Part shown: in pieces, positions 1 to 64,000 of the stretch
How positions within the stretch are numbered: position 1 is the stretch's first letter
Layout of the letters: each line of letters opens with the position of its first letter
Origin: a virus
DNA: 64,000 nt
Virus record (IMG/VR): IMGVR_UViG_3300020810_001160
Coordinates: 36,594-100,593 of that record
Strand: one strand, 5' to 3'
Made by a program: the position numbers and the translations under genes
The notes under the pieces: generated by a model
Database searches by the model: none
What the model was told of the DNA's origin: nothing
What the model saw: only the letters and a program-made list of their open reading frames with translations

Positions 1-29
1 GTGGATTGAAAGGAGATGGATTTATTTAA
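1..29 (+). CDS. 3' end of upstream gene (partial, ...GLKGDGFI*)
   Basis: Open frame ending in TAA at 27-29 that overlaps the next ATG (TAATG coupling, as elsewhere in the window). Confidence 0.5.
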
Positions 30-331
30 TGACAGTTTATAATTCATCAAGTCCGTATGCTTCTACACAAATAGTTGATGATCAATATCTTGATCTGTTA
101 ACGATCAGACCAATTCCAGCCAAACCAGATGACATACTTTATACAGTAGAACCTCAATACAATCACAGACCAGACTTGTTGGCTTATGATCTTTACGGCA
201 ATCAAAAATTATGGTGGGTATTTGCTCAACGCAACATGGACACTATTTCAGATCCTGTATATGATCTCGTATCGGGCGTAGAAATTTATCTTCCTCAAGG
301 ACCTGCTCTTAGAGAATTACTAGGAGTATAA
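29..331 (+). CDS. Baseplate wedge protein, T4 gp53/LysM (tail protein X)-like
   Basis: RPDLLAYDLYGNQKLWWVFAQRN motif typical of gp53/LysM-like wedge proteins; position before the hub and spike genes. Confidence 0.8.
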   Translation: MTVYNSSSPYASTQIVDDQYLDLLTIRPIPAKPDDILYTVEPQYNHRPDLLAYDLYGNQKLWWVFAQRNMDTISDPVYDLVSGVEIYLPQGPALRELLGV

Positions 332-332
332 A

Positions 333-2798
333 ATGAGTTATCGAAATAAGTTCGACAAAAAAATAAAATCAACAAAGATCAATGATGCTGTAAAGGTAAT
401 TGACGGGGGAAAGCAAAAAAATTCCGCATTATGGGGATCAGGTAATGGAACTGCTGGTTCTATAGGTGCAGAAACAGAATATTATGTAGATGATAATAAA
501 AAAACAACAGACACAGATAAAAAGAAAAAGCATACAATTACAAATTTATTCACAAGAAATTATGTAAGAAATCCTCTGCATGATTTTCAATCATACAATG
601 TAATTTTTACAGTGGCGGCACTAACTTTGGAAGAAGTTAATTTTCCAGATGTACTTTATAAAAGAGCTCCGTTATTTCCAGTGGCTCAATCAGCAGGTAA
701 AACCGGACCAGAAGTTACATTTTATAAAGACGCAGGATTAAATCTTGAATATTTTGTAGATGATGTTGAAATAAATGCAGTGGTAGGACCATCCAAAAAG
801 AACAAGCACACTCAATTTACAACAATGACATTTAACATCAAGGAACCTTTCAGTATAGGATTATTTTTCCAAACACTTAATATACAAGCCGTAAAAGCAT
901 CTGGCGATGCAGATGTGAATTATCTTAAAGCACCATATGGTCTAATTGTGGACTTTGTAGGTGTAGATGCTGAAGGAAAAAGTTTCAATAATGAAGAATT
1001 AAGAAAAGTTATACCTTTTTATTTTAAGTCAGCACAACTTCGAGCAGATACATCAGGAGCGATATATGAATGTTCTGCAGTACCAGTAACCGAGTATGGT
1101 CTTTTAACAGTTAACAACGCAATTAAACACGATATTACACTGTCTGGTAAAACTGTTTATGAAATGTTACAACAAGGTGATCAAAGTTTAATGGGACAAT
1201 TAAACTTTAAAGGAGAGACCGATAAAAAAGCCAAGAAAAAAACAAAAGTAACCACAGTGCCTACTGATGATTATATTGTGTATTTTCCAAACAATCTTTC
1301 TAGAACAATCACTGAACAACAACGTAAAGTGATTACAGAAGATAGAGCAGTGATCGTTGCCGACAACGCAGAGTACAGCTCGAAATTTGAAACAGAGAAA
1401 AGAGACACCGCAGTAGAAACACTTTTAGGTAACGACGTTATAGTTACTAATGAATTCAACGGCACAGGTGGTAAAGGAATAAGAGTTTTTCAAACAGTAG
1501 AAGAAGATGCTGATTCAGGAACAACGTTTTTAGGAAACGAAATTGGAGAAGCCAAAATGGCTATCGCTCCTGGTAATATGGCTATTATAGGAAAAACGTT
1601 TCCAGAATTTGAAGAAAAATATGACAAAAGGAAAAAAACTTTCACTAGAGACAAAATTACTCTTGATTTGAAAAAAATGACTTTAAGTTTTGCCAAAGGG
1701 TCTTATATCACAGACATAATAGAAACAGTGATCTTGTTGTCAGAATACAGTTTAAATTTAACTAAAAACCCAGATGAAATTAAAAATAAGCCCAAAGGTG
1801 GTCATCCTTGGTTTAGAATTGTAACAAAGTGCTTTGAATTAAAAGATTCATACATACAGTCCTTAATAAAACAAAATCCCAAAGTGGCTGTTTACAGTGT
1901 TGTACCATATATTGTACCAGATGAACTGTTTATTGATCCAGGCACTTATTCAGAAGGAACCACACAGATTAGAAATAATATCATCAAAGGTTACAATTAT
2001 CTATACACAGGGTTGAATGAAGACATACTAGATTTTAGACTGGATTATAATTTTGCTTTTTATAATTCTGTTGTGCCTAAAATGGATAAAAGTTCAAATA
2101 CTTCTGCGGCAGGTAAAGGAAAAACTGCTGAAAACAATGCCACAGTAGAGGTAGAAAAGAATTATGTAATAGAGCCCAGACCAAATGAATTAAAAGGAGG
2201 GGGAGGCAGTCTAACAAACAGACCAGAAGATGATATAATTGCCGGAGAAGAAGGATCAGAAAATGAATCAATTGAATTAAAAATTGCTAGATCCATGAAC
2301 AAAAGAATTATTAATTCAAATGTGGATTTATTAAATTTAGACATGACAATTATAGGTGATCCATATTTTTTACCCAGCAGTGGTATGATGAACACTGATG
2401 AACCTGTGAGAACATATGTGGATAGGAGAGGATTTCGCAATGCGGACGGTTCACTTACAGCATCAGGATCTGTGTATGGAAACGGTAGAGGTGAACTTAA
2501 TTATGTGGACAGAATGTGCTACATAGAAGTCAATTTTCAAACGCCAATTGATGTGCAAACAGGAGGCAATCATATGATATTTCCTACCACGGGCGGATAT
2601 GTTAACGGTATGAACGAATCTGTGCGTTTGGGAGAATTCAGTGGTTTGTATAGAGTACAAAAAATTGTGAATTCATTCAGACAAGGAAAATTTGAACAAA
2701 CACTCACAGTGATACGAAGTGGCAATATGTCAGTGGATGCTAAAGAAGGATCCAATGAAAATAAAAAAACTATCACTGAAACTGAAGGATCAAACTAA
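333..2798 (+). CDS. Baseplate hub protein (gp27/P2 gpD/VgrG-N-like)
   Basis: C-terminal MTIIGDPY...FSGLYRVQKIVNSFRQGKFEQTLTVIR pattern of hub proteins; directly upstream of the spike gene. Confidence 0.65.
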   Translation: MSYRNKFDKKIKSTKINDAVKVIDGGKQKNSALWGSGNGTAGSIGAETEYYVDDNKKTTDTDKKKKHTITNLFTRNYVRNPLHDFQSYNVIFTVAALTLEEVNFPDVLYKRAPLFPVAQSAGKTGPEVTFYKDAGLNLEYFVDDVEINAVVGPSKKNKHTQFTTMTFNIKEPFSIGLFFQTLNIQAVKASGDADVNYLKAPYGLIVDFVGVDAEGKSFNNEELRKVIPFYFKSAQLRADTSGAIYECSAVPVTEYGLLTVNNAIKHDITLSGKTVYEMLQQGDQSLMGQLNFKGETDKKAKKKTKVTTVPTDDYIVYFPNNLSRTITEQQRKVITEDRAVIVADNAEYSSKFETEKRDTAVETLLGNDVIVTNEFNGTGGKGIRVFQTVEEDADSGTTFLGNEIGEAKMAIAPGNMAIIGKTFPEFEEKYDKRKKTFTRDKITLDLKKMTLSFAKGSYITDIIETVILLSEYSLNLTKNPDEIKNKPKGGHPWFRIVTKCFELKDSYIQSLIKQNPKVAVYSVVPYIVPDELFIDPGTYSEGTTQIRNNIIKGYNYLYTGLNEDILDFRLDYNFAFYNSVVPKMDKSSNTSAAGKGKTAENNATVEVEKNYVIEPRPNELKGGGGSLTNRPEDDIIAGEEGSENESIELKIARSMNKRIINSNVDLLNLDMTIIGDPYFLPSSGMMNTDEPVRTYVDRRGFRNADGSLTASGSVYGNGRGELNYVDRMCYIEVNFQTPIDVQTGGNHMIFPTTGGYVNGMNESVRLGEFSGLYRVQKIVNSFRQGKFEQTLTVIRSGNMSVDAKEGSNENKKTITETEGSN

Positions 2799-4293: not shown

Positions 4294-5040
4294 ATGTCAT
4301 TTAGTATTCCATCATCTGTCACAGATAGTTTATCCGGTATGCAGGCATCTGCAGGTGATCTTACCAAAGTGGGAGGCGAAGCCTGTGATGTGATGGGCAC
4401 ACTGGGAGCCAGCGTTGGTGGAGACGCCATAGCCAAAGCCAGAGAAGCAGAACTTCAAATACAAGCCAACATTCCAAAACTCACTGCCAACGCAGGACTG
4501 ATGCAGACAGCGATTGCTGATTTAGGACCATTGTTAGAACAAGCAGATTCTTTAATTCCAACAGACTTTGGCGGTAATGCACTATCACCTCAGAACATAG
4601 ACGATGATCAGAGACAGATAATATCTGCGAATGCTCAAGCCATAAATGATGCCATGGCACAGTTTGGCAGTGTGGGAGCAAACATTTCAAGTTCGATGGC
4701 ATCATCAGTAACTGATATGTCGGCTTCTGTGGAAGCACTTAAACCTCAACTCAACGTTGCTGTGCAGACAATCTCAGCAGGAGGATGTAAAGGTGTAGAA
4801 AATCAATTGTCAGGCATAGCAGAAGGAGTGGCTCCACAACTGGACGCAATTAAAACTCAATTGGAGACAAAAACAATTCCCAGTCTAGAACCACAAGTGA
4901 ATGCACTATTAGATCAAGCCAAGGATACAGCCGCTCAGGCAGGCGCGGCATTTGAAGCCAATCAAGGAGCAATCACAGAAGCCGCAGATGCAATGAAGGC
5001 ATCAATCACTTCAGCATTACAAGGAGTACAATTACCATAA
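4294..5040 (+). CDS. Ala/Gln-rich amphipathic helical protein, unknown function
   Basis: 248 aa ORF with AGGAG RBS; no Trp, Tyr or His; repeated xxPQL helix-break motifs. Confidence 0.7.
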   Translation: MSFSIPSSVTDSLSGMQASAGDLTKVGGEACDVMGTLGASVGGDAIAKAREAELQIQANIPKLTANAGLMQTAIADLGPLLEQADSLIPTDFGGNALSPQNIDDDQRQIISANAQAINDAMAQFGSVGANISSSMASSVTDMSASVEALKPQLNVAVQTISAGGCKGVENQLSGIAEGVAPQLDAIKTQLETKTIPSLEPQVNALLDQAKDTAAQAGAAFEANQGAITEAADAMKASITSALQGVQLP

Positions 5041-9298: not shown

Positions 9299-12200
9299 AT
9301 GGCATACGATAATGATCAAAAAGATTTCGAATTGCCCGCAGGCAAAGACAATGGTAAAAGAAAGTCTGCTGAATTCTTACCTAAATATTTTAGAACTCCA
9401 GTAAATCAAAAATTTTTACACAGCACACTTGATCAATTAATTTCTCAAGGAACTCTTGAAAAGTTAAATGCTTATTACGGAAGAAAAGTTACAAGTGCTT
9501 ACACTTCAGGTGATTTATATGTGCCTGAAATAAGTGCTGATAGAGAAAACTATAAATTTGAACCATCTGTTGTTCAAAAAGATGATCTAGGAAATGTAAA
9601 TTTTTATTCAGATTATATCGATTTTGTAAATCAAATTGCCAACTATAATGGCGACACATCTAATCACAGTGTTTTGAATGCTCAAGAATATTATGCTTGG
9701 TCTCCTAAAATAGACTGGGACAAGTTTGTAAATTACAGAGAATATTTTTGGATGCCATATGGTGCATCTACAGTATCTATAAACGGACAACAACGAAATG
9801 TTGTCAGCACATACACAGTTACAAAAAGTGATCAAGGTGACAACTATGCTTACATTTTTACTCCAGATGGTTTAACGGCGAATCCTACATTAAAATTATA
9901 CAAAGGACAAACATACAAATTTGAAATTGATGCTGAAGGATTACCTTTGGTTTTTAGAACACAAAGAATATTAGACGAAAGTTATAATTTCAATGATGGT
10001 ATAGATGTTCAAGCAGTTGAAAAAGGCATAATAACTTTTCAGGTAAAAGATTCAACACCTGAAAAATTATATTATGGTTCATCAAATGATATCAATGCTT
10101 GGGGATTAATCCAAGTGTTTGACATTGAAGAGAATTCAGCCATCGATGTTACCAATGAAGTATTAGGTAAGAAAAATTATACCACTGCTGACGGAGTTGC
10201 TCTTTCTAATGGAATGAAAGTTAATTTCAAAGGCACAGTTACTCCAGCACAATATGCCGAAGGAGATTACTATGTAGAGGGTGTAGGCGAAGCAATTCAA
10301 CTTATTAATTCTCAGAATTTAGAAGTGGTCAGTAGTTTTACAAACAGTGTGCCCATTCCATTTGATTCCCAAAATTTTGATACAGTGGGTTTTGGAACAG
10401 CAACATCATATGCTGTCAATAAAGACTATGTGGTCATTAATAGATCATCACCAGAAGGAAGTCCATGGACAAGACACAATAGATGGATACATCGTTCAGT
10501 TATTGAAGCCAGTGCCAGTGCAAATGGTCAAGTTGCAGACATAGATCAAACTTCAAGAGCACGTAGACCTATTATAGAATTTGAAGCAGGTATTAAACTA
10601 TACAACTTTGGAACATCGAGCAAAGGCAATGTAGATTTAATAGACACAGTGACTAAAGATGTAATGAGCGACATAGAAGGATCTGAAGGATTCTACGTTG
10701 ATGGTATTGCTGTTACAAATGGTTTAAAAATATTGTTTACAGCAGATACAGATCCGTTGGTGAAAGATAAAATTTATCAAGTAAAATTTATAGACCTTGA
10801 ACTAAATGGAATAAAAACCAACCAAGTAAGTTTAGTAGAAGTTGCAAATGCTTCACCGAAAGAAGGTGAAACAGTTTTAGTTACTAATGGTGTAAAAAAC
10901 CAAGGCAAATGGTATCATTATAACAATGGTTGGAAAACATCACAAGCGAAAACAAAAACTAATCAAGCACCATTGTTTGATCTTTTTGATAGCAATGGCA
11001 ACAGTTACACAGATGATATATTATACCCAAACAGTTCGTTTCGGGGAAATAAAATATTTTCATATGCAGTCGGAACAGGCACTAACGATACTGAATTAGG
11101 ATTTCCATTAACTTATCAAAACGTTGAAAATGTTGGCGATATTGTTTTCAACTTTGATTTATTAAATCAATCATATGTGTATGAATCACAAACATTAAGT
11201 GGAACACTTGCTTCAGAAACAGCATTTTTAAAAAAATACAATGCTCAAGGACAATTTGCCACAGTGAATGGTTGGTCTAAGGCACCAACAAAAAGTTTTC
11301 AAAAAGTAAACAGACAATATGTAGCCAGCACTAATCAATTGAACGATTTTGCTGTAGACGTGTATGACAAAAGTGGTGATTTAAATGATTTAGGAGTAAA
11401 AGTTTTTGTTAACAACAAAAAGAAAACACAAAACGTTGATTGGTATATTTTAAGAGTAGATTCAGTTGCTTATGTAAAATTTTACACAAATCTAAAAGCC
11501 AATGATGTTGTTTTAATTAGAACAACCAGTGCCACTGACAAAAATGCTAATGGACATTATGAATTTCCAACAAATTTACAGTCTAATCCATTAAATGACA
11601 AAGTAGTTACATTCACAGTTGGACAAGTGACTGATCACGTAAAATCAATCACTAATGAGTTGACAGATATACAAGGTGTCACACCAGGAGTAAGCAATTT
11701 AAGAGATTTTCCAAATGCTACATTGTATGGAAGAAAATTTTTACAACACAGTGGACCAATGGTGTTGTCTTCATATTTGTTGAATAACAAAGAAGTCAAT
11801 TTAATTTCGGCAATATCACAAAGTCAAACAGACTACTACAAATTTAAAAGATCATTTGTGAGTGCTATGGACGATTTGGGATTTGACGGTACATCAGTAC
11901 AAATAGTTGATAAAATTTTAGAAAAACTTAATAAAGACTCCAACGATAATCTTCCTTATTTTCAAACAGATATGTTTGGAGTAGGTGCATATATTAGCAC
12001 AACACACGAAGTATTAGATGTAGACAGTAAATTTTTTGCTTTAAAAAACAGTCATAATCTTTCTACTCTATCAAATAAAGCAGTGTATGTGTATCTGAAC
12101 GGTGATCAATTACTTCACGCACATGACTATATTTTTACTGATGGTTTTGTTCAAGTAACTAAAACTTTAACTTTAGATGACACTATTGTTATTAATGAAT

Positions 12201-15200
12201 TTGAAACAACTAACGGAACATATGTACCACCTACACCGACTAAATTAGGATTATATCCAAAATATGTTCCTAAAAAATATTCAGACACAACCGCTTTAGA
12301 GCCAGTTAATGTTATTCAAGGACATGACGGTAGTATCGTTGTTGCATACAATGATTTTAGAGATGATGTTATTTTAGAACTAGAAAAAAGAATTTACAAT
12401 AATATAAAAGTTGTTTTTGATGAAAATTTATTTGAAATAAAAACTTTTATACCTAGAGCAAATTCAATCAACGAATTTACTGAAGCATCTATCAATAAAA
12501 CATTATTGGGCGATTTTAATGATTGGTTAACATTTATTGGAAACGAAGATTACACAGCCAACACTTACCAGTCTGATGAAAACAGTTTAACTTGGAATTA
12601 TTCTAACATGGTGTCACCGCAAGGGACTAAATTATCAGGATACTGGAGAGGTGTGTACAAATATGCTTATGACACAGACAGACCAAATATTACTCCTTGG
12701 GAAATGTTGGGGTACACAGAAGAACCATCTTGGTGGTCAACAGTGTACGGACCAGCACCATACACCGGAGACAATCTTGTGTTATGGCAGGATTTAGAAA
12801 AAGGAATTGTAAGAGAACCTAATAAAAAAATTATAATCAAAGACAAATATAAAAGACCAGGATTGACATCGCATATTCCAGTGGACAGTAATGGAAATAT
12901 AAAAAGTCCATTTGATAGTGCTTATGCCAGAGGTGCTGTATTACAATTAACTAAAGGAAACTTTAAATTTGGCGATCACGCTCCAATTGAAAATGCTTGG
13001 AGAAGAAGTGCTCATTATCCATTTGCTCTATTAAAAAGTTATATTTTACATAGACCTAATCAAGCAGTTGGTATTGGATTAGACATCAGTAGAACAAAAA
13101 GAAATGCAAGTGGTCAAATTGTTTATAATTCTTTAACAGCAATTAGACCTAAAGACATTGTATTTCCAAGCAGTATTGCAGATAAAACAATAAACTTAAC
13201 AGCAGGATTAATAAACTATATTTTTGAAGTGGTAGAAAACTCACTAACCACCAACTATGCTTCTTACAAAAAACAACTTACTGAATTAACAGTACAGATT
13301 GGATTTAAAATTAGAGGTTATAGCAACAAAAATAATTTCAAATTATTAATTGATAGTAAGACTCCGCTAAACAGTACGTCGTTGTTTGTACCAGATGAAA
13401 ATTATCAATTAATTTACAACGTTTCGGCACCTATCGAAATTTTAACTTATAGTGGACTGATCATAGAAAAATTAGCCAGCGGTTACAGTATAAAAGGTTA
13501 TGATAGAGATGACCCTTATGTAAGATATCACGCAGTGTATGAACAAACCAGTGATCCTGCAATTACAGTGGGAGGCATAAGTGCATCATTTGTAAATTGG
13601 AGCGAAAATAAACGTTACGATAGAGGTGCTTATGTAAAATATTCTGATGAGTTTTATGCTGTAGACGAAACACACGTTTCAGGATCAACATTTGATCTTT
13701 CTAAATTTTTAAAATTAATTGATCTGCCAACAGAAGGTGGCAGAACTGCAATCCTTAGAAAAAAATTCTTAACTGATGCTGTGGTAGAAATTCCATACGG
13801 TACTGTGTTTGATACAATTCAATCAGTTGTTGATGTAATTCTTGGATATGAATCATATCTAAAATCAAAAGGATTTAAATTTGATCAGTTTGATAGTCAG
13901 ACGGAATTAGTATCCAACTGGCAATTAAGTATGAAAGAATTTTTATTCTGGACTACACAAAATTGGGATGAAGGTGCAGTAATCAGTTTAAGTCCAGCCA
14001 GTAAAAAACTTGTATTAGAATCGAAATACTCTACAACTGACAATGTTGTGGATAATTTCTATTCATATGGTGTATTAAAAGAAGATGGAAAAAATTTAGA
14101 CAAAGAAAATTTAAGAATTACTAGAGAATCAAACACATTTGAATTGTTTACAAAAAACACTGTTAATGGAATTTACTTTGCTAAAATTCCTTTAGTACAA
14201 AAAGAACACGTGTGTTTAGTGGATAACTCAACGGACTTTAATGATTTAATCTACGATCCAGCAAGTGGTTACAAGCAAGATAGAATTAAAATGCTTGGTT
14301 ACATCACAGAGTGGGACGGCAGTTTAAATATTCCAGGATTTATCTATGACGAAGCCAAAGTAGTTGAATGGCAACCATACACAGATTATGCTATGAGCGA
14401 TGTGGTTAAACACAAAGAATTTTATTACACAGCCAATACAAAACTTAAAGGCACACAAGAATTTAATGACAATGACTGGCGAAGATTGGATGATAAACCA
14501 CGAAGTAGTTTATTGTCAAATTTTGATTACAAAACTAATCAGTTTGCTGATTTTTATGATCTTGACACAGACAACTTTGATAGTCAACAACAAAAACTAG
14601 CACAACATTTAATTGGGTATCAACCAAGAGAATATTTACGTAATATCATTAACGATGATGTGAGTCAATACAAATTTTATCAAGGTTTTATTAGAGAAAA
14701 AGGAACATCAAATGCTCTTAATAAATTATTTGATGCTTTAGCAAGTGCTGATAAAGAGAGTTTAGATTTCTATGAAGAATGGGCAATACGAAAAGGGCAA
14801 TATGGTGCTGTAGATACATTTGACGAAATAGAATACAATCTTGATGAATCTAAGTTTAGATTGAACCCACAACCTATTTTGTTAACAGATGACTCGGCAA
14901 ACACAGCATCTGATTTGGTTTATAGAATACAGTCTGGACAAACATATCTAGCACCCAAGGATTATACACACACGCCTTTTGCCATTAAGTATGACAAGAA
15001 TACTTACATTAAGACAGCAGGACCAGTTAATCCAATAGATATTTCTCTCACATTATCTCAGTATGAAGATATATTAACAAATTCTAATGTTAAAAATTTA
15101 CTTGAAGGACAATATGTTTGGATTGGAAATTACAATAAAAGTTGGACTGTTTTAAAATATACCAAAACAGAACAGCAAACAGTTTCAGTAGTAAAAACTG

Positions 15201-46040: not shown

Positions 46041-46053
46041 TTTATGGACAAAG

Positions 46054-46099
46054 ATATTTATCGTTATTAAGTACGCACATTATAATTTACGATAAGTAT
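46054..46099. promoter_or_regulatory. Divergent late-promoter pair forming an inverted repeat (ATATTTATCGT ... ACGATAAGTAT)
   Basis: 11-bp inverted repeat with one mismatch between divergent genes; each arm reads ACGATAARTAT toward its gene. Confidence 0.65.
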
Positions 46100-46105
46100 A
46101 GTAAT

Positions 46106-50219: not shown

Positions 50220-50823
50220 ATGTAACTTCCTTGAATATATTTAATGCTTTTTCAAACTGTAAATGTTTATAATCTTTATCAAGTAAAAAATAACACAACG
50301 ACCAACGCCCTTGTACGGGGTCTGGATTGTATGTAGAGTGCAGTTGTCCAACATTAATCAAACTGGGTTGATTTATGACTTTTTCACATACTAATTCACA
50401 TTGATCTTCACTTTCGCAAATTAATTCTTTGTGTACACCGTTGCTATCAAAATGATCCACAATGTCTGGTTTAACTGTTTCTGTTATGTGTGAACTATCT
50501 GTGATATCCGTTTTTAAATATGATTCATCTTTAACATTCCACCATCTTGTGGTGCTGGTATCCGGACCCCAAGTAAAATTAATTTTTGTAGCATTGGTTA
50601 TTGTGCTGGTATCATTGTGTATGTGCACCTTTCCTTGATTAGGAGGAGTATAGATACCTTCTGTAACATTAGAAACAATTACTTCAAAGGATTCAATCCA
50701 ATCTATTACTGATTGATCTAGATCCGTTTTGGGAACAAATATCACTTCCGATTGAGAAGGTTCATAGGAAAAACAAGATGGCTTTTTGTGTTCCTTAGGT
50801 ATTTTTACATATCTATGATACAT
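50212..50823 (-). CDS. 2OG-Fe(II)/cupin oxygenase-like protein, paralog of 49593-50219
   Basis: HIHND...NFTWG...NVGQLHSTYN...RWSLC. Confidence 0.65.
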   Translation of the reverse strand: MYHRYVKIPKEHKKPSCFSYEPSQSEVIFVPKTDLDQSVIDWIESFEVIVSNVTEGIYTPPNQGKVHIHNDTSTITNATKINFTWGPDTSTTRWWNVKDESYLKTDITDSSHITETVKPDIVDHFDSNGVHKELICESEDQCELVCEKVINQPSLINVGQLHSTYNPDPVQGRWSLCYFLLDKDYKHLQFEKALNIFKEVTYE

Positions 50824-50824
50824 T

Positions 50825-51631
50825 TTAATAATTGGATAAATGATCTATGCCTATCTGCTTTCTGAACTTGTCTGTGAATACACAATCAATACGTAGTCCG
50901 TATTCTTGTTCATTGCTGACATCACCACCATGCCAATCTTGATCATTCCAAAATGCCGCGTTGGCATTGATGTAGGTTTTGTTTTTTGCTTCAGGATTCC
51001 AAATATAGAATCCTCTTTTTGTGCTGTGCCTAATGTGTATGAATTCATTGCGATGATCAGTATAACCTTGATCATCACCGTGTTTGCCATCAAGGTCTCT
51101 GTGTTCAAATGGTTTACCATCATGTTCGCAGTGGAAAAATATCACTCTACCTATGCTTTCAATGATGCCCGTGTTTACTAATTCTTTGATCCAAGCAACC
51201 ACACCTGGAAAATATTTTGCTTCTTCTGTGATGTTTCGTTCAGCATTTCTATGATCCCAATCTCCTTCTTCCCAAAGGAAATAATATATGTAAGGATCAT
51301 TGGCTCCTAACACAGACTTCAAATATCTTGTGAATTGATTTCTGGTTTTGTAATCTTTAATATTGTTGTACAAGTCGTCACCATTTTTTCTAATAGGATG
51401 ATCCTGAGGCAGTGCTTTGTATTCTTCCAAAGCCATATAAATTGGTTTCCAATTCAGAGTGTAACTCATGTCTTTAGGATCAAATCCTGGTGACATCCAG
51501 GTGCCTTCTTTGGCATATTCTCGTGCGAGAGCAAAACCTCTACATATTTCTGGATGTAGTTGTTTGAAACTGTCTATGTCTATGTGGTCATCTAGACTGA
51601 TGTATGGTTTACCGCCAATTCCTCTAATCAT
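50825..51631 (-). CDS. 2OG-Fe(II)/cupin oxygenase-like protein
   Basis: GRVIFF..EHRD (HxD)...DWHGG...LRID; start moved to ATG 51631 because the longer ORF overlaps the divergent gene. Confidence 0.55.
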   Translation of the reverse strand: MIRGIGGKPYISLDDHIDIDSFKQLHPEICRGFALAREYAKEGTWMSPGFDPKDMSYTLNWKPIYMALEEYKALPQDHPIRKNGDDLYNNIKDYKTRNQFTRYLKSVLGANDPYIYYFLWEEGDWDHRNAERNITEEAKYFPGVVAWIKELVNTGIIESIGRVIFFHCEHDGKPFEHRDLDGKHGDDQGYTDHRNEFIHIRHSTKRGFYIWNPEAKNKTYINANAAFWNDQDWHGGDVSNEQEYGLRIDCVFTDKFRKQIGIDHLSNY

Positions 51632-51636
51632 CAAAG

Positions 51637-51652
51637 TATTTACTTTTAAATA
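51637..51652. promoter_or_regulatory. Back-to-back TAAATA motifs (bidirectional late-like promoter)
   Basis: TATTTA at 51637-51642 (minus) and TAAATA at 51647-51652 (plus) in a 39-nt divergent gap. Confidence 0.55.
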
Positions 51653-51670
51653 CAGTACAAATAAATTATC

Positions 51671-52243
51671 ATGGCTTTTAAATTGGTACCATATTCTGAC
51701 GACTTGAATCTTGAAACATTTTATCAAACAGCCAAACAAAAAGGATTTGTCAACAACTCAACCAAAAAAATGTTGGTAGATTCTCTGTCCCGAGAAGACA
51801 GATATCAGGTTTGGATGCTGTTGTGGAATGACAGAGTGATTGGATCCACAGCGGCACATTCATTTCCTGAAATGGGTCCTGACAGTTATCGTATTGCTTG
51901 TCGTATCTGCACATTCACTGATGAACTGCCGAAAGAGTATCAAGTGGTGCGTACTAGAGACACCATAAGAAATCATCAAACTACCACGCAACAATTTTTT
52001 CAACCAGCAGGCATACGTTGGGCAGGTGAAAATAAAAATTACTATGTGACCACAAATGAAAACGCAGAAGGCACACAACGACTGGTACATTCTATTGTGG
52101 CTCCTACTCTGGAAAGTGTGGGTGTTTATACCAGAGTGAAAGATATGGATTACAGAGGTACACTTCAAACTGTGTGGCGTGTGAACGCTGATGTGTATTT
52201 TAAACAACTTGAACAAGTAAAACAATGGCCCACTTATGAGTGA
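51671..52243 (+). CDS. GNAT-like acyltransferase (tentative)
   Basis: VWMLLWNDRVIGSTAAH..YRIACR beta-strand pattern and ~190 aa size; weak. Confidence 0.4.
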   Translation: MAFKLVPYSDDLNLETFYQTAKQKGFVNNSTKKMLVDSLSREDRYQVWMLLWNDRVIGSTAAHSFPEMGPDSYRIACRICTFTDELPKEYQVVRTRDTIRNHQTTTQQFFQPAGIRWAGENKNYYVTTNENAEGTQRLVHSIVAPTLESVGVYTRVKDMDYRGTLQTVWRVNADVYFKQLEQVKQWPTYE

Positions 52244-52922
52244 TTTCAAATACTATTACAACAATGTGCCAGGCAAAGGACTGTGTAGAAACAATTTAAT
52301 TTATACCAGTCTAATCAACGAAGATGCCACAGAGTTTTGTATGTGGTTTCACAATGATTCAGAATATCATAAAGGTCACAATGAAGTGGTGGATCCTGCA
52401 CTGATGGAAATGAAGTACCATAGAGAAAAAGATTTCTTACTGTGGTTGGATATTGATCACAAACAGTTGATCCCTCGCACCACACGTTTTGATCCAGATG
52501 ATCAAAAGATATATTTTGAAATACAAGGTGTAGATTTTTGGGAACAAAGCCATGGCAAAACATATGCTGACGTATTGCCTAATTGGCAAGAGCAGATGCT
52601 GTACATAATGGAAACACACAAACAGTTGGGCATATACAAATACAGTCTACATCCTAGCAGTTATTTTGTTATTGATGGAGAATTAAGAACAATCAATTAC
52701 TTCTTTGCTTACAGAAAGGACGAAACACCCATCACAGTACAAGAACACATGAGTCATATTTCCAAAGAAAGACAAAAAGAACTGTTGCCTAAAATGAAAC
52801 AGATGGGTATAGAAATGGACAATACATATCCATTTGATCAACTACAGATACTGTGTCTGGAAAGTTTTAGAAATGTATACCCAGACAGTTTTATTGACAA
52901 GGCAATTTCACTCTATAAGTAA
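52236..52922 (+). CDS. Protein-kinase-like fold protein, paralog of 46773-47393
   Basis: Shared NNLIY..L..FCM, YHREKDFL, LIPR, PNWQ, LGIYKYSLHPSSYF. Confidence 0.5.
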   Translation: MSDFKYYYNNVPGKGLCRNNLIYTSLINEDATEFCMWFHNDSEYHKGHNEVVDPALMEMKYHREKDFLLWLDIDHKQLIPRTTRFDPDDQKIYFEIQGVDFWEQSHGKTYADVLPNWQEQMLYIMETHKQLGIYKYSLHPSSYFVIDGELRTINYFFAYRKDETPITVQEHMSHISKERQKELLPKMKQMGIEMDNTYPFDQLQILCLESFRNVYPDSFIDKAISLYK

Positions 52923-52926
52923 TAGT

Positions 52927-54069
52927 ATGCAGGATACAAAAACCACAAGCCTATGCCACATATGTTATCGTCACTGTGAAGCAGAACGAGTGACCAAAAC
53001 TGATGGAGTATATTTGATAAAGACTTGTCCAGAGCACGGAACTTCAAGTTATTTGGTAGAACAAGACATAGATTTCTATAATTCATTGATTTATGATAAA
53101 TCAGGATATTCAATACCTCAAGGCATAATGATTGAAGTTACAGATAAATGTAATTTGAATTGCCCACACTGTTATCATAAACCAGACAACAAAACACAAG
53201 ATAAACCTGTAGAACAAATACTTTACCAAATAGAACATAGATTTAATGCTGACGCAGGTGCTGTGATATTAGCAGGTGCTGAACCAACTGTGAGAAAAGA
53301 TTTACCTGAATTAATTGTACAAATTAAAAAATTACTTAAAAAATTAGGAAGACCTGAAGATGTGTGTATTCTTACAAATGGTGTAAAACTCTCCGATAGA
53401 GCATGGGTTAAAAAAATTGCTGAAGCAGGCACAAACATGGTTATGATAGGTATGAATCATCACTCTTATCAAGGTAAGAAAGTACATGAGAAACAATTAA
53501 AAGGAATTGACAATTGTATTGCAGAAGGAATATTTGTCTACTATGTTGGATATACGTTGGAACACATTGACCATATGGAAGAAGTACTGGAAGAAATACA
53601 AGCATTAGGTAATCGTGCTTGGCAATATAGAATTAGAGCAGGTTCAGATATTGGCAGAGCACCAGATGAACCTCAATTCTTTTTGAGCAGACACGTTGCT
53701 AAGATAAAAGAAATTTGTGATCGCAAAGGTTGGACTTGGGAAAAGAAACCTGCTGATGATAATTTATATCACTTCATGGTAAACATAAATGGTATCACTC
53801 ATAGAATTATACAATGGAGTGATCCTAAAACAATTGATATGGAACAATTACAATGTGGTCCTTGGTGTGATTTTGTACCCGGCAAACCTGTTACAAATTT
53901 CTTACATCAAATCATGTTGCGTGATGCTGTGGTCAATGAAGGCCAGACTTTGCATGACACTGTGCCAAACAAATACTTGTTTCAACCTGAAAATGTTGAC
54001 TACGAAGTTACAGAGTGGACATTTAAGAGTTGGGACGATTCCAAACAAAAGCAGAAAAAAACTATTTAG
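52927..54069 (+). CDS. Radical SAM enzyme with an N-terminal CxxC...CPEHG domain (MJ0619/Tes/GDGT-MAS-like architecture)
   Basis: TSLCHICYR..YLIKTCPEHG, then EVTDKCNLNCPHC, GAEPT, LTNG. Confidence 0.8.
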   Translation: MQDTKTTSLCHICYRHCEAERVTKTDGVYLIKTCPEHGTSSYLVEQDIDFYNSLIYDKSGYSIPQGIMIEVTDKCNLNCPHCYHKPDNKTQDKPVEQILYQIEHRFNADAGAVILAGAEPTVRKDLPELIVQIKKLLKKLGRPEDVCILTNGVKLSDRAWVKKIAEAGTNMVMIGMNHHSYQGKKVHEKQLKGIDNCIAEGIFVYYVGYTLEHIDHMEEVLEEIQALGNRAWQYRIRAGSDIGRAPDEPQFFLSRHVAKIKEICDRKGWTWEKKPADDNLYHFMVNINGITHRIIQWSDPKTIDMEQLQCGPWCDFVPGKPVTNFLHQIMLRDAVVNEGQTLHDTVPNKYLFQPENVDYEVTEWTFKSWDDSKQKQKKTI

Positions 54070-54656: not shown

Positions 54657-55784
54657 TTATATTAGGTTAGCCCAACCGCCGTTTTCGTAACCTTGAAATT
54701 TATTATCGTCTGAGTTGTAAATGATCATTCCATTTGCAGGAGTTAAAGCATTTCTTTCAGCAGTTGTGAGTGAGCCAAACTGTACAAAGCCTGATGTTTT
54801 AATATTACCAACAACATCTAATTTTTCTGCTGGAGTTAAAATATTAACACCTAAATTACCATCTTTGTTTATTACAACAAACTTATTTGTTACACCATTG
54901 TCTGGAGTTGTTCCCATCACAATGTTTCCTGGAACAGCACCTGCTCCTACACTTGCTTGTGAATCAACACCTGCCACAATAAAACTTGATTGAACATATT
55001 GTGAACCGTCATGTCCGTAATTAATATAACCAAATAGCGAATCGTCTGCGGCATTGGCTGTTGGAGTTACAATTGAACCTTTAGATGTGTATGTTTCAAT
55101 TGAGTTGAATGTGTTAGCATTACCATCATCTGAATAAATTCTTAGTGCATTTCTGGCTGTGTGATCTGTGTTGTAAATTTCTAAACCAACACCTTGTGCA
55201 GAACTGTTTGTTCCTATTTGAATTCCGTTGCCTGATTGCAGTGTAATTACATTGCCATCAAAGTCTAACACACTGTTTGTGATTCTGTCTGAAGCGCCGT
55301 CTATTCTTAATGAGTTATCGTCAGCATTCACTGTGCCTTTGTGTACACCAACTGTGGTTGCTGTAACTGTTTTTGCTGTGTGATCAACGATAGTTGTATC
55401 ATCAGAAGCAAGTAAGTCACCTTTAGATGTTGCTGTAACTCTACCGTTACTAACATTAACTAATACTGATGAATCATTACCTACCACATTACCATTGATT
55501 GATACTGCTGTGATTTCTTCGTCTACTTGTAAACCTTGAAAATAACCTGTTCTCCATTTTGCTGATGTAGAACCAATGTCTCTTGAATTAGATGCGTCTG
55601 GAGTTATATTGCTTGGAACGGCTAGATATTGTGCTGATAATGTTGTGTCTACTTGATTTCCACCAGCAGTTACACCATCTCCAACATATAGTTTTTTTGT
55701 GTCTGTAGTATAGATTAATTCACCCGCTAAAGGTGTAATTCCTTGTCTTTCTGCGTCTGTTCCACGTCTAATTTGTAGTGCCAT
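54657..55784 (-). CDS. Tail fibre/spike-like protein with an Mtd/hyaluronidase-type N-terminal domain
   Basis: MALQIRRGT..AGELIYTTDTKKLYVGDG; GNLGVN..PAEKLDVVG; LTTAERNAL..NGMIIYN. Confidence 0.75.
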   Translation of the reverse strand: MALQIRRGTDAERQGITPLAGELIYTTDTKKLYVGDGVTAGGNQVDTTLSAQYLAVPSNITPDASNSRDIGSTSAKWRTGYFQGLQVDEEITAVSINGNVVGNDSSVLVNVSNGRVTATSKGDLLASDDTTIVDHTAKTVTATTVGVHKGTVNADDNSLRIDGASDRITNSVLDFDGNVITLQSGNGIQIGTNSSAQGVGLEIYNTDHTARNALRIYSDDGNANTFNSIETYTSKGSIVTPTANAADDSLFGYINYGHDGSQYVQSSFIVAGVDSQASVGAGAVPGNIVMGTTPDNGVTNKFVVINKDGNLGVNILTPAEKLDVVGNIKTSGFVQFGSLTTAERNALTPANGMIIYNSDDNKFQGYENGGWANLI

Positions 55785-57111: not shown

Positions 57112-57396
57112 ATGACGTTTGATAAATGGGCAACTAAGATTGAATAAAGAAAGTTCTTTTGAGTTTTCGAATCCTACCAAAATATAATTTTGTATTTTTC
57201 CATCTCTATCCACATCAAGATGTTTACCAATATAGAATCTTCCTTTTAGGTTTTCCAAAATCCATTTCTCCAACAATTCTTCATTGTCGTTCCAGTCGTA
57301 ATTTAATTTTAGAAATTCTAAACCTTTTGGTTTTTTGGAAAATTTTCTACAATCGAAGTAGTTTAATGGATTTACTTGATTAGTTTTGGCAAACAT
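57109..57396 (-). CDS. Hypothetical protein
   Basis: 95 aa ORF, TAATG-coupled to the vWA gene. Confidence 0.6.
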   Translation of the reverse strand: MFAKTNQVNPLNYFDCRKFSKKPKGLEFLKLNYDWNDNEELLEKWILENLKGRFYIGKHLDVDRDGKIQNYILVGFENSKELSLFNLSCPFIKRH

Positions 57397-58646
57397 TATT
57401 CGTAATGTACCGTAGTACCAAAAGGTGCTTCCATGTTCTTATCATGATGACCATTTATCACAAACAGTGTGTCACAATAGTTTTCGTCGCCCCAAGTGTC
57501 CCAAGGATAACCATCTGTGAACATAATAAACTTCTTAGGTACTATGTCATTTTCTTTCATATAATTCCAGTTAGCCATAAAATCTGTACCACCGCCACCT
57601 TCTATTTTGTACGAATCCATAGATTCTCCTGATGCACCAAAGTCTTGTTCATTGTGTACTTCTGTATCAAAACACCATATTTTAATGTTATAATCTTTGT
57701 ATTGTTCCATAATACCTTGCACTTCACCTAGGAAATCTTGCACTTGTTCATTGTGTATTGAACCTGAAGTATCAATAGCAATACAGACATCAATAGTTTC
57801 ATCATAGTTTGTGCCTGGTAATATCACACCTGAGTGCCAACCTTTTCTGCTGGGTCTTGCAAATGTGTAATCATTTTTAATAACACTCTGAATCTGTTGT
57901 TGTAATAATTCTCTCCAGTTCATTTTAGGTTCTGTAAACTGTTGAATAATTCTTTCAATCTCTTTAGGCAGATTACCTGCACCAGCCGCCTGTGCCGCCG
58001 CCATCATAGACTCTTTTATTTCATTTTTAATTTGTTCTAATTCTTCTTTAGAGTAAGCAGGACCTTTACCTTTTTGTTTGCTGTTAGGGTCTTGTTTTGT
58101 TCCACCTGTGCTTTCACCTTTTTCCCAATCAATATGTTCATCAAGCAATTTACCTAACTGTTCCATTGCCTTCTTACCTTTTTTATAGATGTCATCATAC
58201 ACTGCCTCACTTGCCCAACCATCATATTTCCAATCTTGGAATATCTGCACATCCTTAGGTTTCTCACCAATGTTGTCTCTTACCAATGTGTTGTTAACAA
58301 TGTAATCACAAGCGATGTTATGTAATTGAGGATCTCTATCTTCACGTCTTGTCATGTGATCAAACACACAATGAAGTATTTCGTGTGCAATAACAAATTC
58401 AATTTCTTTGCTAGACATTTTACTAAAAAATTCTGTATTAAAAAATAAATTTCTGCCATCAGTTGCGGCAGTTGGACACCAGTCATCACATTCTTTAATT
58501 TGAAGTCTTGTTGCCATGTTACCGAAAAAAGGATGTCTCAACAACAGTCCAACTCTTGCAACCACAATTTTATCGATAACTTCTGCTCTTAATTGCTTTA
58601 ATTCTTCTGGACTTAATTCTTTCTTTTCTAAAATCTCTGTGCTCAT
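57396..58646 (-). CDS. vWA-domain protein with N-terminal HExxH metallopeptidase-like domain (DUF2201-like)
   Basis: TAATDG, AHEILH, MIDAS DTSGS, GGGGTDF, FTDGY. Confidence 0.85.
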   Translation of the reverse strand: MSTEILEKKELSPEELKQLRAEVIDKIVVARVGLLLRHPFFGNMATRLQIKECDDWCPTAATDGRNLFFNTEFFSKMSSKEIEFVIAHEILHCVFDHMTRREDRDPQLHNIACDYIVNNTLVRDNIGEKPKDVQIFQDWKYDGWASEAVYDDIYKKGKKAMEQLGKLLDEHIDWEKGESTGGTKQDPNSKQKGKGPAYSKEELEQIKNEIKESMMAAAQAAGAGNLPKEIERIIQQFTEPKMNWRELLQQQIQSVIKNDYTFARPSRKGWHSGVILPGTNYDETIDVCIAIDTSGSIHNEQVQDFLGEVQGIMEQYKDYNIKIWCFDTEVHNEQDFGASGESMDSYKIEGGGGTDFMANWNYMKENDIVPKKFIMFTDGYPWDTWGDENYCDTLFVINGHHDKNMEAPFGTTVHYE

Positions 58647-58652
58647 ATTATT

Positions 58653-58681
58653 ATAATACTTTCTTTTGGTAAATTAGTCAA
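58653..58681 (-). promoter_or_regulatory. sigma70-like promoter TTGACT-N17-TATTAT
   Basis: -35 at 58676-58681 and -10 at 58653-58658 with 17 nt spacing. Confidence 0.7.
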
Positions 58682-58692
58682 CCGTTTTTTGG

Positions 58693-58721
58693 TATAGGGC
58701 ACCGGTAAAGAGTGCCCTATA
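58693..58721. other. Perfect 10-bp hairpin (TATAGGGCAC-N9-GTGCCCTATA) after the ATPase gene
   Basis: Inverted repeat seen directly; no U-tract in the direction of transcription, so a terminator role is uncertain. Confidence 0.6.
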
Positions 58722-58731
58722 TTCAACACTT

Positions 58732-59844
58732 TTATTTGATGCTTTGAGCGGCAGTAATATATTTGCCGTATTTTTCATGGAATTCATCAAAACATTTGAC
58801 TGCATCAGGATCAATCGGTAATTGATACTGAGTTAATGCCATCTTGATACCCATAACAACAAGTTCTGTATCGAAGTTGTCCATCATAAATCTAAGAAAC
58901 TTATTAACTTTGTCATTAAATTTCTTATCTTTTTTGTCATTTGCTTCTTTGAGTTCATAACATAACGAAACCGTAAGGGAGTACATTGCTGATATTTCTT
59001 TCGATTTCAGTTCTGTTATTTTGCCTTCAAGTATTTCTGAAGGATTAGGTAACTGTGAAGCCACCTTTCTATGAGCCATGAACTTGACTGCAAGTCCTTC
59101 GCCCACTGCACCACTGACCAAGTCGGTCACAGTGTTTTCATCTAAATCATCCGATAACAACTCACTTACGAATGACCAAGATCTTGGAGTAGCAAAAGAA
59201 CGACTTGGTGATCTAGGATCAAAGTCATACAAGTCCTTCTTGCTAAAAGTTAGATATCCAACAACGTCTTTACTGATGTTGTTAGCCACTGCCCATTCAA
59301 ACCAATCATCAAATTCTGGTTTCATTTCTAAATGGACGAATCTGTTTGCCAACGGAGCAGGCATTCTGTACACAACTCCTTTGTCAGCCTCTCTGTTACC
59401 AGCCGCAACAATTAATACATTGTCTGGTAATTCATATTGACCAACTTTTCTGTTTAGGATCAATTGATATGCCGCCGCCTGTACTGAAGGTGCCGCAGAA
59501 TTCATTTCATCCAAAAACAACACAATGTTCTTGTGTTTCTTTGCCATCTGTTCTGTAGGCAATTCTGATGGAGATGCCCAAACCATATTGTTTTCTTTTG
59601 AATTGTAGTATGGAATACCTTTAATATCTGTAGGCTCCCATAAACTTAATCTGATATCGATCACTTTGGCATCGATAGTTTTGGCAATTTGATGTATAAC
59701 ATCTGATTTACCAATACCAGGGCCGCCCCATAAAAATATTGGTCTCTTAATTTTTAATGCGTGTAATATGCTCGCCTTTGCTTTGTTAGGCGACAATTGT
59801 CTGGTTGTAATGCCAGTATCTTGTGTGCTTTTTTGTTTTACCAT
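58732..59844 (-). CDS. MoxR-like AAA+ ATPase
   Basis: GGPGIGKS Walker A, LFLDE Walker B, AAGNR, PLANRF, TPRSW. Confidence 0.9.
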   Translation of the reverse strand: MVKQKSTQDTGITTRQLSPNKAKASILHALKIKRPIFLWGGPGIGKSDVIHQIAKTIDAKVIDIRLSLWEPTDIKGIPYYNSKENNMVWASPSELPTEQMAKKHKNIVLFLDEMNSAAPSVQAAAYQLILNRKVGQYELPDNVLIVAAGNREADKGVVYRMPAPLANRFVHLEMKPEFDDWFEWAVANNISKDVVGYLTFSKKDLYDFDPRSPSRSFATPRSWSFVSELLSDDLDENTVTDLVSGAVGEGLAVKFMAHRKVASQLPNPSEILEGKITELKSKEISAMYSLTVSLCYELKEANDKKDKKFNDKVNKFLRFMMDNFDTELVVMGIKMALTQYQLPIDPDAVKCFDEFHEKYGKYITAAQSIK

Positions 59845-59955: not shown

Positions 59956-59956
59956 C

Positions 59957-60633: not shown

Positions 60634-60666
60634 ATAATATGAGTATTTATCTAAAATGAATCGGTA

Positions 60667-62376: not shown

Positions 62377-62379
62377 ATT

Positions 62380-62478
62380 TTATAATTTTATAAACAAGTA
62401 ATACCACAAAACAATTAGAGCTCCACCTGATCCCAGTATCATTATTATTGCGGCGATTTCTTGTAAAATTGATATCAT
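62380..62478 (-). CDS. Small single-pass membrane protein, 32 aa (not in the ORF track)
   Basis: MISILQEIAAIIMILGSGGALIVLWYYLFIKL*; TAATG-coupled to the upstream gene and fills the gap. Confidence 0.65.
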   Translation of the reverse strand: MISILQEIAAIIMILGSGGALIVLWYYLFIKL

Positions 62479-62858: not shown

Positions 62859-62915
62859 TTTCTTATCTCCGATATTTCTTTTAATCTTTGTTCTTCTCTA
62901 TCCTTCATCATCTCC

Positions 62916-63815
62916 TTAGGTACCCCAGGCATTTCCGAATATGTCGACATGGAGTCTTGGAGTGTATCTCCATCCTCTTTCCATTGCGAGCTCGGCGACC
63001 TTTCTTGTGTTGAGTGTGTATGTTTCGGATCTTCCACCCAGTGGCATAATATATACGGGAACGTTGATTCCAGCGTCACGAAACTCGGCAACTGCCTTCG
63101 TAACTTCATCCACATCGGTTGCATCAGCAACCACAAATTTAAAATACATTTGACTGCGAGGAATCCCATAATAAGACCTAGCAATCTCAGGCTTGATAGC
63201 AGTGTGCCAAGGTTCACCTGATACGGAAAGTTTTGGAGAGCAACTCCAAGTGACTTCGAATCTGTTTTGTTTTCTAAGATAATCTTCAAAATCCTTGTGT
63301 AAAATCTGCGTTGTATTTGTTTCGAATGTAACATTTTTCAAGTCTCCCATTTTTGGATGTTCAAATAGATCAATATAAAATCTTTGCCAACCTAGCAAAG
63401 GTTCTCCGCCTGTTAAGATAAAGTGTACGTCTTGTCCATTAGACATTGTCCATTTTCCTTCTGGCGTTAAAGATAGTATGTGTTCCACAACTTCATCGAT
63501 AGTTCTATCTTTCATATACTTTTTAAACTCTGGATATATGCTGGCGTAAGTATCACAACCTGTGTGTATGATTGGCAAGTCTTCAAATTGTTTAACTTTG
63601 TCCAATACTCCATCATCTAAAAGTTTTTTTACTTCTGGATTGTATTTGATGCCTTGTTTTAATTTTTCTTCTCTGTCTGGATGTCTATCCAATCCAAAGT
63701 TCATGCATCTAAAATTACAACCAAAAGTTCGTAAGAATACACTGGGTACTCCTACAAATCTTCCTTCTCCTTGTACAGAGTAAAATGCTTCTGAATATCT
63801 AAGTTTTTTAGTCAT
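62916..63815 (-). CDS. queE: 7-carboxy-7-deazaguanine synthase (radical SAM) with a long insertion in the cluster motif
   Basis: EAFYSVQGEG, FLRTFGCNFRC...GCDT, TGGEP, ETN, SPKL, RLHV. Confidence 0.9.
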   Translation of the reverse strand: MTKKLRYSEAFYSVQGEGRFVGVPSVFLRTFGCNFRCMNFGLDRHPDREEKLKQGIKYNPEVKKLLDDGVLDKVKQFEDLPIIHTGCDTYASIYPEFKKYMKDRTIDEVVEHILSLTPEGKWTMSNGQDVHFILTGGEPLLGWQRFYIDLFEHPKMGDLKNVTFETNTTQILHKDFEDYLRKQNRFEVTWSCSPKLSVSGEPWHTAIKPEIARSYYGIPRSQMYFKFVVADATDVDEVTKAVAEFRDAGINVPVYIMPLGGRSETYTLNTRKVAELAMERGWRYTPRLHVDIFGNAWGT

Positions 63816-63999
63816 GACCTTTCATACTCATACAGATATCATAAAACTCTTTCTTAAGTGGTGGGTGTTTATCAAACGCACCCAACATAATAGCAGTTGT
63901 CATATCTGATTGATGTTCTTTAACTCCTCTGTGTGTCATACAGTGATGTTCTGCTTTGATCAACACAGCCACGTTTGGAGTTTTAGCATATTTCTGTAA
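63808..63999 (-). CDS. folE: GTP cyclohydrolase I, C-terminal part (runs off the window; not in the ORF track)
   Basis: Manual translation LQKYAKTPNVAVLIKAEHHCMTHRGVKEHQSDMTTAIMLGAF...EFY* matches the FolE HxCMxxRGV motif; overlaps the queE start. Confidence 0.85.
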   Translation of the reverse strand, partial: LQKYAKTPNVAVLIKAEHHCMTHRGVKEHQSDMTTAIMLGAFDKHPPLKKEFYDICMSMKGHD

Positions 64000-64000
64000 T

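Follow-up and report, generated by a model that had tools for sequence, protein, structure and literature searches.

The DNA described here is a window of 64,000 nucleotides, bases 36,594–100,593 of a single viral contig of 100,593 bp (IMG/VR record IMGVR_UViG_3300020810_001160), from which the word GCWGC (GCAGC and GCTGC) is missing altogether. The contig encodes a T4-type major capsid protein, a portal, a prohead protease, a gp46/47-type nuclease, and baseplate parts. Its capsid protein is 66–70% identical to the capsid proteins of the jumbo-group phages Rak2, PA5oct, and GAP32 and of Vibrio phage 2.275.O, the nearest isolate. The contig belongs to an uncultured jumbo myovirus of the T4-like kind, marine and salt-marsh in occurrence, whose capsid is of the Rak2/PA5oct type, and represents about a quarter of the genome (CheckV completeness estimate, 27%). 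The G+C content of the window is 35%, and the window has no tRNA genes. Near-identical DNA occurs in salt-marsh, aquatic, and seawater metagenomes from 2016–2025, and a 4.2-kb structural stretch gave no blastn match among cultured phages.

A gene for a QueE-like radical SAM protein lies at the right end of the window, next to a truncated folE (Table 1). IMG/VR contains more than 599 relatives of this QueE-like protein, and we fetched 80 of the related loci. Large relatives are labelled G001–G009; they include G001 (148 kb), G003 (181,867 bp; L103–L112), and G005 (IMGVR_UViG_3300020477_000990), a complete genome of 328,149 bp with terminal repeats. The median protein identity between G005 and the contig is only ~40%.

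GCWGC is absent and its sites are recoded

GCWGC is the recognition word of TseI and ApeKI, and GCAGC is that of BbvI, all of them Type II enzymes. A maximal-order Markov model predicts ~65 copies in the window, and 200 codon-preserving shuffles gave 36.9 ± 3.9 (minimum 26). For the whole contig, 200 such shuffles gave 83.1 ± 5.6 copies (minimum 70, z = −14.9), and none is present. The word is missing in all three reading frames and in intergenic DNA. Avoidance throughout the window had been proposed in a preliminary description made by eye, and both kinds of count bear it out. As an example of restriction-type site avoidance, the absence of GCWGC is both strong and clean.

The codon choice for alanine carries the clearest signature. 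Before residues other than alanine, the contig uses GCA 983, GCT 623, GCC 247, and GCG 89 times, so that 83% of these codons are GCA or GCT. Yet among 89 Ala-Ala pairs, 35 of them within window genes, the first codon is GCG in 67 and GCC in 22, and never GCA or GCT. The preliminary description had noticed this shift, and both of the Ala runs that it quoted were located on the minus strand (Table 1). Likewise, where the word would fall in the frame xxG-CWG-Cxx, CAG and CTG are never used for Gln and Leu.

GCWGC sites are thus removed by synonymous substitution. A sister lineage (L070–L078), whose QueE proteins are 76–78% identical, has GCWGC, AGCT, GCGC, and RCATGY near expectation. Of 11 GCAGC sites of this lineage that could be aligned to the contig (blastn of whole loci), 5 fall on GCGGC or GCCGC there; in a codon alignment of QueE, this control lineage held no GCWGC. 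GCSGC is 2.6-fold over-represented in the contig (106 vs 40), and since recoding of some 74 Ala-Ala pairs predicts about this excess, no further explanation is needed.

The pressure on DNA has mildly reshaped the proteins as well, which have fewer Ala-Ala pairs. The contig proteins contain 89 such dipeptides against 146 ± 10 after residue shuffling. At the protein level, the observed/expected ratio is 0.70 in the contig; three relatives with the purge have 0.69–0.90, the relaxed sister lineage 0.83, and KVP40 and HTVC008M, both of which keep GCWGC, 1.14–1.17.

Table 1. Features of the window and words purged from the contig. Positions are those of the window unless the contig is named; expectations are from codon-preserving shuffles.
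Feature	Position	Strand	Details
GCAGC/GCTGC-free stretch	1..64000	both	0 observed; rest of the 100,593-bp contig likewise free
Ala run GCG-GCG-GCA ... GCG-GCT	57984..58004	-	string match; in DUF2201 metallopeptidase/vWA-like gene (57396-58646)
CAG GCG GCG GCA	59470..59481	-	string match; in MoxR-type AAA ATPase gene (58732-59844)
QueE-like radical SAM gene, 299 aa	62916..63815	-	phrog_2076 'QueE-like radical SAM domain', E 4.6e-50, full length
FolE (GTP cyclohydrolase I), C-terminal 63 residues	63808..63999	-	cut by contig end; NCBIfam FolE, E ~5e-11
AGCT survivors (n = 10)	665..668, 1377, 5685, 27658, 37425, 56124, 56366, 57077, 62419, 62989		all GAGCT or AGCTC
GCGC survivor (one of 13 in the window)	4943..4946		GGCGC or GCGCC
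HAGCTD	contig		0 observed vs 217 expected
GCWGC	contig		0 observed vs 83 expected
RCATGY	contig		0 observed vs 42 expected
HGCGCD	contig		0 observed vs 31 expected
RCTWAGY	contig		0 observed vs 22 expected
MGGCCK	contig		0 observed vs 12.7 expected
RCGCGY	contig		0 observed vs 7.9 expected

A G-purine step at the site edge decides which copies survive

We enumerated all palindromic IUPAC patterns of 4–7 bases and kept the maximal patterns with zero counts. GCWGC is one of at least seven palindromic words purged from the contig (Table 1). TGCA, GGCC, CCGG, and TCGA are lowered to about 0.3–0.6 of expectation; GGCC stands at 0.3, though it always holds GGC. GTAC and GANTC are not lowered, GATC is slightly over-represented, and ACGT (0.85) and CTAG (0.84) are mildly low. 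All 17 copies of AGCT that survive in the contig read GAGCT or AGCTC, and all 26 of GCGC read GGCGC or GCGCC. Coding constraint was considered as the cause of these survivors and ruled out, as synonymous escapes exist in every frame.

Occurrences of each word were then sorted by whether a G-purine step (G followed by A or G) lies at one or both site edges, both strands considered. Across four genomes, copies of AGCT, CATG, CGCG, GCGC, and CTWAG without such a step number exactly zero wherever the word is purged, as do those of CASTG in G005, and copies with the step persist. Words that are not strongly purged (ACGT, GTAC, CAWTG, and roughly CTAG) show little or no difference between the two classes. 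The sparing is graded, with two sides more effective than one and GG more effective than GA. For AGCT in the contig, the count (observed/expected, here and below) is 0/193 without G flanks and rises to 12/81 for a single flank and 5/8 for both. The corresponding counts for CASTG in G005 are 0/108 without a flank; 1/129 (GA) and 6/72 (GG) for a single flank; and 4/39, 7/44, and 6/12 for flanks on both sides.

When eight boundary rules, the full set possible, were compared over 57 related sequences (1.78 Mb), the rule of G followed by a purine accounted for 99 sequence-word cases involving seven words. The other seven rules accounted for 0–14 cases each, and the only counts above one (14 and 4) belong to complements of the same rule. 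The rule was derived from the contig and then tested on its relatives, which are not independent of it.

Where the position of the G falls also matters. Words whose own terminal G would bear the feature (CATG, CGCG, CTWAG, and CASTG) are always spared, and CATG is spared by a following G whatever base comes next (CATGG followed by A, T, or G as well as CATGGC). Where the G lies one base outside the word, the outcome depends on the word: sparing is constant for GCGC, occasional for AGCT, and never seen for GCWGC and GTWAC. Both Gs of GCWGC precede C, and a leading G gives no sparing: GGCWGC is as absent as other GCWGC (0 vs ~198 expected in the four genomes). GGCC, TCGA, and GASTC contain an internal G-purine step, yet are moderately depleted. 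A mutational bias of UV type at YC/GR was ruled out by reasoning, since such a bias would erode G-purine contexts, not maintain them.

Purged words differ between lineages

GCWGC is absent from ~70 of the 80 related loci (summed expectation ~600) and also from G001 (0/140), G003 (0/170), and the complete G005 (0/232). RCATGY, HGCGCD, and RCGCGY are zero in all three of these relatives, and RCTWAGY is zero in G001 and G005 and kept in G003. Other words are purged in single lineages. G003 fully lacks AGCT (0/606) and GTWAC (0/443), the latter occurring at normal frequency in the contig and G001; G005 lacks RCASTGY (0/108), TGCA is lowered to 0.25 in G001, and CATG is zero in L064. GTWAC is a methylated motif of marine metagenome-assembled genomes (MAGs) that is missing from REBASE (PMC8919816). 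The purge sets are a mosaic between lineages, as expected for changing sets of sequence-specific nucleases. Purging relaxes fast once it is lifted, as in the sister lineage, and is therefore ongoing.

Isolated phages have purge sets of their own. HTVC008M (first 50,000 bp) lacks GATC (0/74) and GANTC (0/85) without a preceding G, and TCGA (0/65). HTVC010P, an unrelated podovirus, lacks CTNAG (0/132), GGCC (0/26), and GTSAC (0/35), and has little ACGT (3/29); RCATGY is lowered in it (2/37 vs 59/99). The purge sets of these two phages, both isolated on one Pelagibacter strain, are disjoint. In KVP40 (first 50 kb), GCWGC is not avoided and 6-bp palindromes are purged instead. About one phage genome in ten is documented to have lost Type II sites completely, and GCWGC is among the avoided sites (PMC6286503; Rusinov et al. 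2018).

Deazaguanine genes of the contig and its relatives

The presence of folE and queE, proposed in the preliminary description, is borne out by the C-terminal FolE fragment and the QueE-like gene (Table 1), although NCBIfam QueE models match only the N-terminal QueE motif of the latter, below their cut-offs. In the relative L008, a full-length FolE adjoins QueE, and G001 and G002 encode QueD. QueC, which the pathway uses for preQ0, was not found in the contig and has only weak matches in two relatives. The signature protein of deazaguanine DNA modification is the transglycosylase DpdA (bDpdA and DpdA1–4, TGT superfamily). The Pfam TGT family, PF01702, was not matched (E ≤ 1) by the contig, by eight large relatives, the complete G005 among them, or by Vibrio phage 2.275.O, a phage that encodes QueF, QueC, FolE, QueE, and QueD. 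PF20314 (DUF6610) likewise gave no match in G005 and G006, and nothing in the contig or G001–G004 resembled DpdA3 of Cellulophaga phage phiST; these negatives rest on family-profile and sequence searches, which could miss very remote homologues. All phages with deazaguanine DNA were reported to encode a DpdA (Cui et al. 2023, PMC10516641).

The scans for methylases covered the contig and four relatives. No C5 or Dam-type methylase family was detected in any of them, and the only N6/N4 methylase is in G001.

The neighbourhood of folE in L008 includes a phosphoribosyltransferase-like open reading frame (ORF) ~3 kb upstream (L008:6230–6733, plus strand; phrog_8995, E 3e-19), and a 2OG-Fe(II) oxygenase also lies near FolE and QueE. 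For a 272-aa ORF beside FolE, BLASTP against phiST DpdA3 gave nothing significant.

Selection on the word and its probable agent

An account without selection on the word would attribute the missing GCWGC to base composition, codon-pair preference, or mutational bias, and GC-rich pentamers are indeed rare at 35% G+C. This account is already refuted, and we give it practically no credence: the contig has 0 copies against 83 ± 5.6 with protein sequence and codon usage held, the first codon of Ala-Ala shifts from 83% GCW to 100% GCS, the word is missing from all three frames and between genes, and a sister lineage of equal composition keeps it near expectation. The best explanation, which we consider probable, is selection by restriction-type nucleases, with host systems as the most likely source and with G-purine sparing of the other words. 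Sequence-specific, Type II-like endonucleases would exert a continuous selection on the phage DNA by cutting it, and the agent acting on GCWGC would be of the TseI/ApeKI type, or BbvI for GCAGC. Each GCWGC would cost fitness and be deleted by synonymous changes, so that the equilibrium count would be zero; the escapes would be GCS-GCN for Ala-Ala, and CAA, TTR, or CTH for Gln or Leu between G and C. AGCT, GCGC, CATG, CGCG, and CTWAG (and CASTG in relatives) persist only with a G-purine edge, and no context spares GCWGC. The zero counts against composition- and codon-preserving nulls, the codon signature in three frames, and the purges that vary between lineages (AGCT; GTWAC in G003; CASTG in G005; TGCA in G001) support this explanation. 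The purge, the recoding, the spread of the purge over the clade, and the G-purine sparing rule are shown directly, and from them we infer that the agent is a nuclease and that the nuclease is the host's. Several points weigh against this explanation. GCWGC, RCATGY, HGCGCD, RCGCGY, and mostly RCTWAGY are purged across relatives at ~40% median protein identity, a stability over divergence that exceeds the usual stability of host restriction repertoires. The disjoint purges of HTVC008M and HTVC010P imply that a purge set need not mirror the isolation host and could be phage-intrinsic. We know of no enzyme with the specificity HAGCTD or HGCGCD, and a moderate depletion affects GGCC and TCGA despite the G-purine step that each contains.

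The preliminary description had left open whether a host restriction system or a nuclease of the phage itself was at work. Restriction-type selection on the word itself holds up, given the recoding, the many palindromes, and the relaxed sister lineage, and host restriction, as the most likely source, is the default reading. The purged words could instead be targets of methylase-free nucleases that this phage or competing phages would direct against host or rival DNA, from which a site-free phage would be safe. Such an origin would fit the identical words purged over deep divergence and the wholly different purge sets in two phages from one host strain. It would, however, demand several nucleases for at least seven separate words, and the sister lineage relaxes all purges together, for which a host switch is simpler. 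Pfam scans of nearly all contig ORFs of at least 100 aa detected no restriction-nuclease family, a weak test in that the contig is 27% of a genome and many of its ORFs are without a family. The PvuII, Bsp6I, and MspI families (PF09225, PF09504, and PF09208) gave no match in the contig and four to six large relatives, the scans of the relatives covering a minority of their ORFs. We regard nucleases of this phage or of competing phages as an unlikely agent, while keeping them in view.

The proposed deazaguanine modification and a possible G-purine protection

In the model put forward in the preliminary description, an agent of the Fnu4HI type (GCNGC) would cut the phage DNA, a preQ0-like base made through FolE and QueE would shield GCSGC at GA or GGC, and only GCWGC, which could not be modified, would be purged. 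FolE and the QueE-like protein in the window, QueD in relatives, and the restriction of surviving AGCT to GAGCT and of GCGC to GGCGC fit this model, as does phage CAjan, where preQ0 on the first G of GA and GGC blocks HaeIII and EcoRV (PMC7544227); sequence alone, moreover, cannot tell a GCNGC enzyme plus a shield from a GCWGC enzyme. Most of the evidence points the other way. DpdA, carried by all phages with deazaguanine DNA (PMC10516641), was not detected in the contig, the large relatives, or Vibrio phage 2.275.O, and QueC was not found in the contig. A strict CAjan rule fails at CATG, GGCC, and GGCWGC, and G-purine fits instead: CATGG survives before A, T, or G just as in CATGGC, GGCC is at 0.3, and GGCWGC is not spared. 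The GCSGC excess is matched by Ala-Ala recoding, and a GCWGC-specific enzyme spares GCSGC, so that modification at GGC is not needed for its tolerance. HTVC008M, finally, shows G-flank sparing without a QueE-like gene. The proposed preQ0 shield, and with it a deazaguanine link to the GCWGC purge, is not supported by the genes and words found here, and FolE and the QueE-like protein are not needed for the best explanation; we consider the model improbable. The general idea that only unshieldable sites are fully purged stays viable without the deazaguanine chemistry, since a G-centred context, G-purine, does govern which copies of the other words survive.

A different protection could nevertheless underlie the rule. 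A phage-borne, DpdA-independent system may mark G-purine steps (the G, its paired C, or the phosphate between G and purine), and a mark in or just beside a site would block 4–5-bp cutters, GCWGC and TGCA being purged as words that cannot be marked. This reading would extend the best explanation and does not exclude it; we hold it to be a serious possibility, somewhat short of an even chance. One dinucleotide rule covers the flank-limited purge of seven words in 57 sequences with no competing rule, and it stays constant while the set of purged words shifts between lineages. Words with a terminal G are always spared and those with G one base outside variably, as base modification would do. The sparing is dose-graded (AGCT 0/193, 12/81, and 5/8), and G-flanked AGCT and CASTG are still strongly depleted, which suits partial protection from a 4–5-bp cutter better than a strict 6–7-bp enzyme. 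Alternatively, several nucleases could have extended specificities. For RCATGY an enzyme of this kind, NspI, is known, so that at least here no shield is needed, and RCATGY is also depleted in the unrelated podovirus HTVC010P. Our scans gave no candidate modifying enzyme; GGCC, TCGA, and GASTC are moderately depleted in spite of their internal steps; HTVC008M spares by GG and not by GA (TCGA 0/65), so that the rule is not uniform among T4-like phages; and the relatives that served as a test are not independent of the contig. The broader proposal, that an abundant marine jumbo T4-like clade carries a new DpdA-independent G-purine protection whose specificity can be read from the surviving words, with GCWGC as the commonest word it could not cover, is more tentative still.

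Site avoidance itself is textbook knowledge. What is new is that one context rule, G then purine at the edge of the site, governs the survival of many different words in widespread, uncultured giant phages of the ocean, and that GCWGC, to which this rule does not extend, is wholly erased. Should the rule stem from a modification of the DNA, the specificity of that modification would have been deduced from sequence alone, and, with no DpdA detected, the modifying enzyme would be new. If it reflects nuclease specificities, it predicts several recognition sequences new to science (HAGCTD, HGCGCD, RCTWAGY, and RCGCGY) in marine microbes. Either way, the purge lists are a fingerprint of the nucleases facing these phages.

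Comparison with known systems

Classical work on site avoidance in phages is that of Sharp, Karlin, and Rocha. As in the virulent double-stranded DNA phages surveyed more recently (PMC6286503), a Type II word is eliminated by synonymous change, several palindromes are affected together, and no lysogeny genes are visible in the contig fragment. The clade differs in that the purge is total over 100–328 kb, involves several words together, and is kept in a deep, abundant marine clade, and in that most of its purges are flank-conditional through one G-purine rule, which the surveys do not describe.

The recognition word of the GCWGC systems (TseI/ApeKI, and BbvI for GCAGC) equals the purged pair GCAGC and GCTGC, and such systems occur in aquatic bacteria. 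M.AbaBS3I is a GCWGC m4C methylase of freshwater Chloroflexi, for which an assay made use of the TseI specificity (PMC6329791), and GCWGC methylation was reported in a marine Chloroflexi MAG (PMC8919816). For the contig, a cognate enzyme in a host is proposed from the purged word alone, and the Chloroflexi are cited as carriers of such systems, not as hosts.

With the DpdA-dependent deazaguanine systems, the clade shares FolE, QueD, and a QueE-like protein, and a short G-centred context that decides protection from restriction. The motifs linked to DpdA are GA and GGC in CAjan (PMC7544227) and GA in iggy (PMC10484667), and four subfamilies, DpdA1–4, are described (PMC10516641). In contrast, no DpdA of any subfamily was detected in the contig or the relatives searched, a complete genome included, and the contig showed no QueC; the context here is a G-purine step and not the pair GA and GGC; GGCC is unprotected; and the clade is known from sequence alone.

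Mom of phage Mu modifies adenine partially, in a short degenerate context, and confers broad protection from restriction. The likeness to the contig would be one of concept, in that partial base modification in a degenerate context shields only the sites that hold the context. The base is a different one, no mom-like gene was seen, nor was one sought, and the parallel is purely one of analogy.

Other genes of the contig

Besides the QueE-like gene (window 62916–63815), the window encodes a radical SAM island (35379–54069), with at least eight radical SAM genes in ~20 kb, several of them with SPASM domains. Its companions are two Asp/Arg-hydroxylase-like proteins and an epimerase-like gene. The island is absent from the relative G003, whose synteny with the contig jumps across it. 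A 375-aa protein encoded at 54657–55784 (minus strand) has an Mtd_N domain (major tropism determinant, E 6e-12) and may be the target of a diversity-generating retroelement. The DUF2201 metallopeptidase/vWA-like gene adjoins the MoxR-type AAA ATPase gene (57396–59844, minus strand), and the two form a conserved pair.

A single ORF of 4,883 aa (9299–23950, plus strand) lies among virion genes, and its counterpart in G003 has 4,641 aa and 37% identity. Upstream of the window, structural genes of the contig surround a HemB (ALAD, E 8e-43; L001:18992–19795, minus strand) and a weakly HemD-like ORF (L002:12296–12865, plus strand). Two very large fibre-like proteins with 4–7 chitin-binding CBM5/12 repeats are encoded at L001:3–6385 (minus strand).

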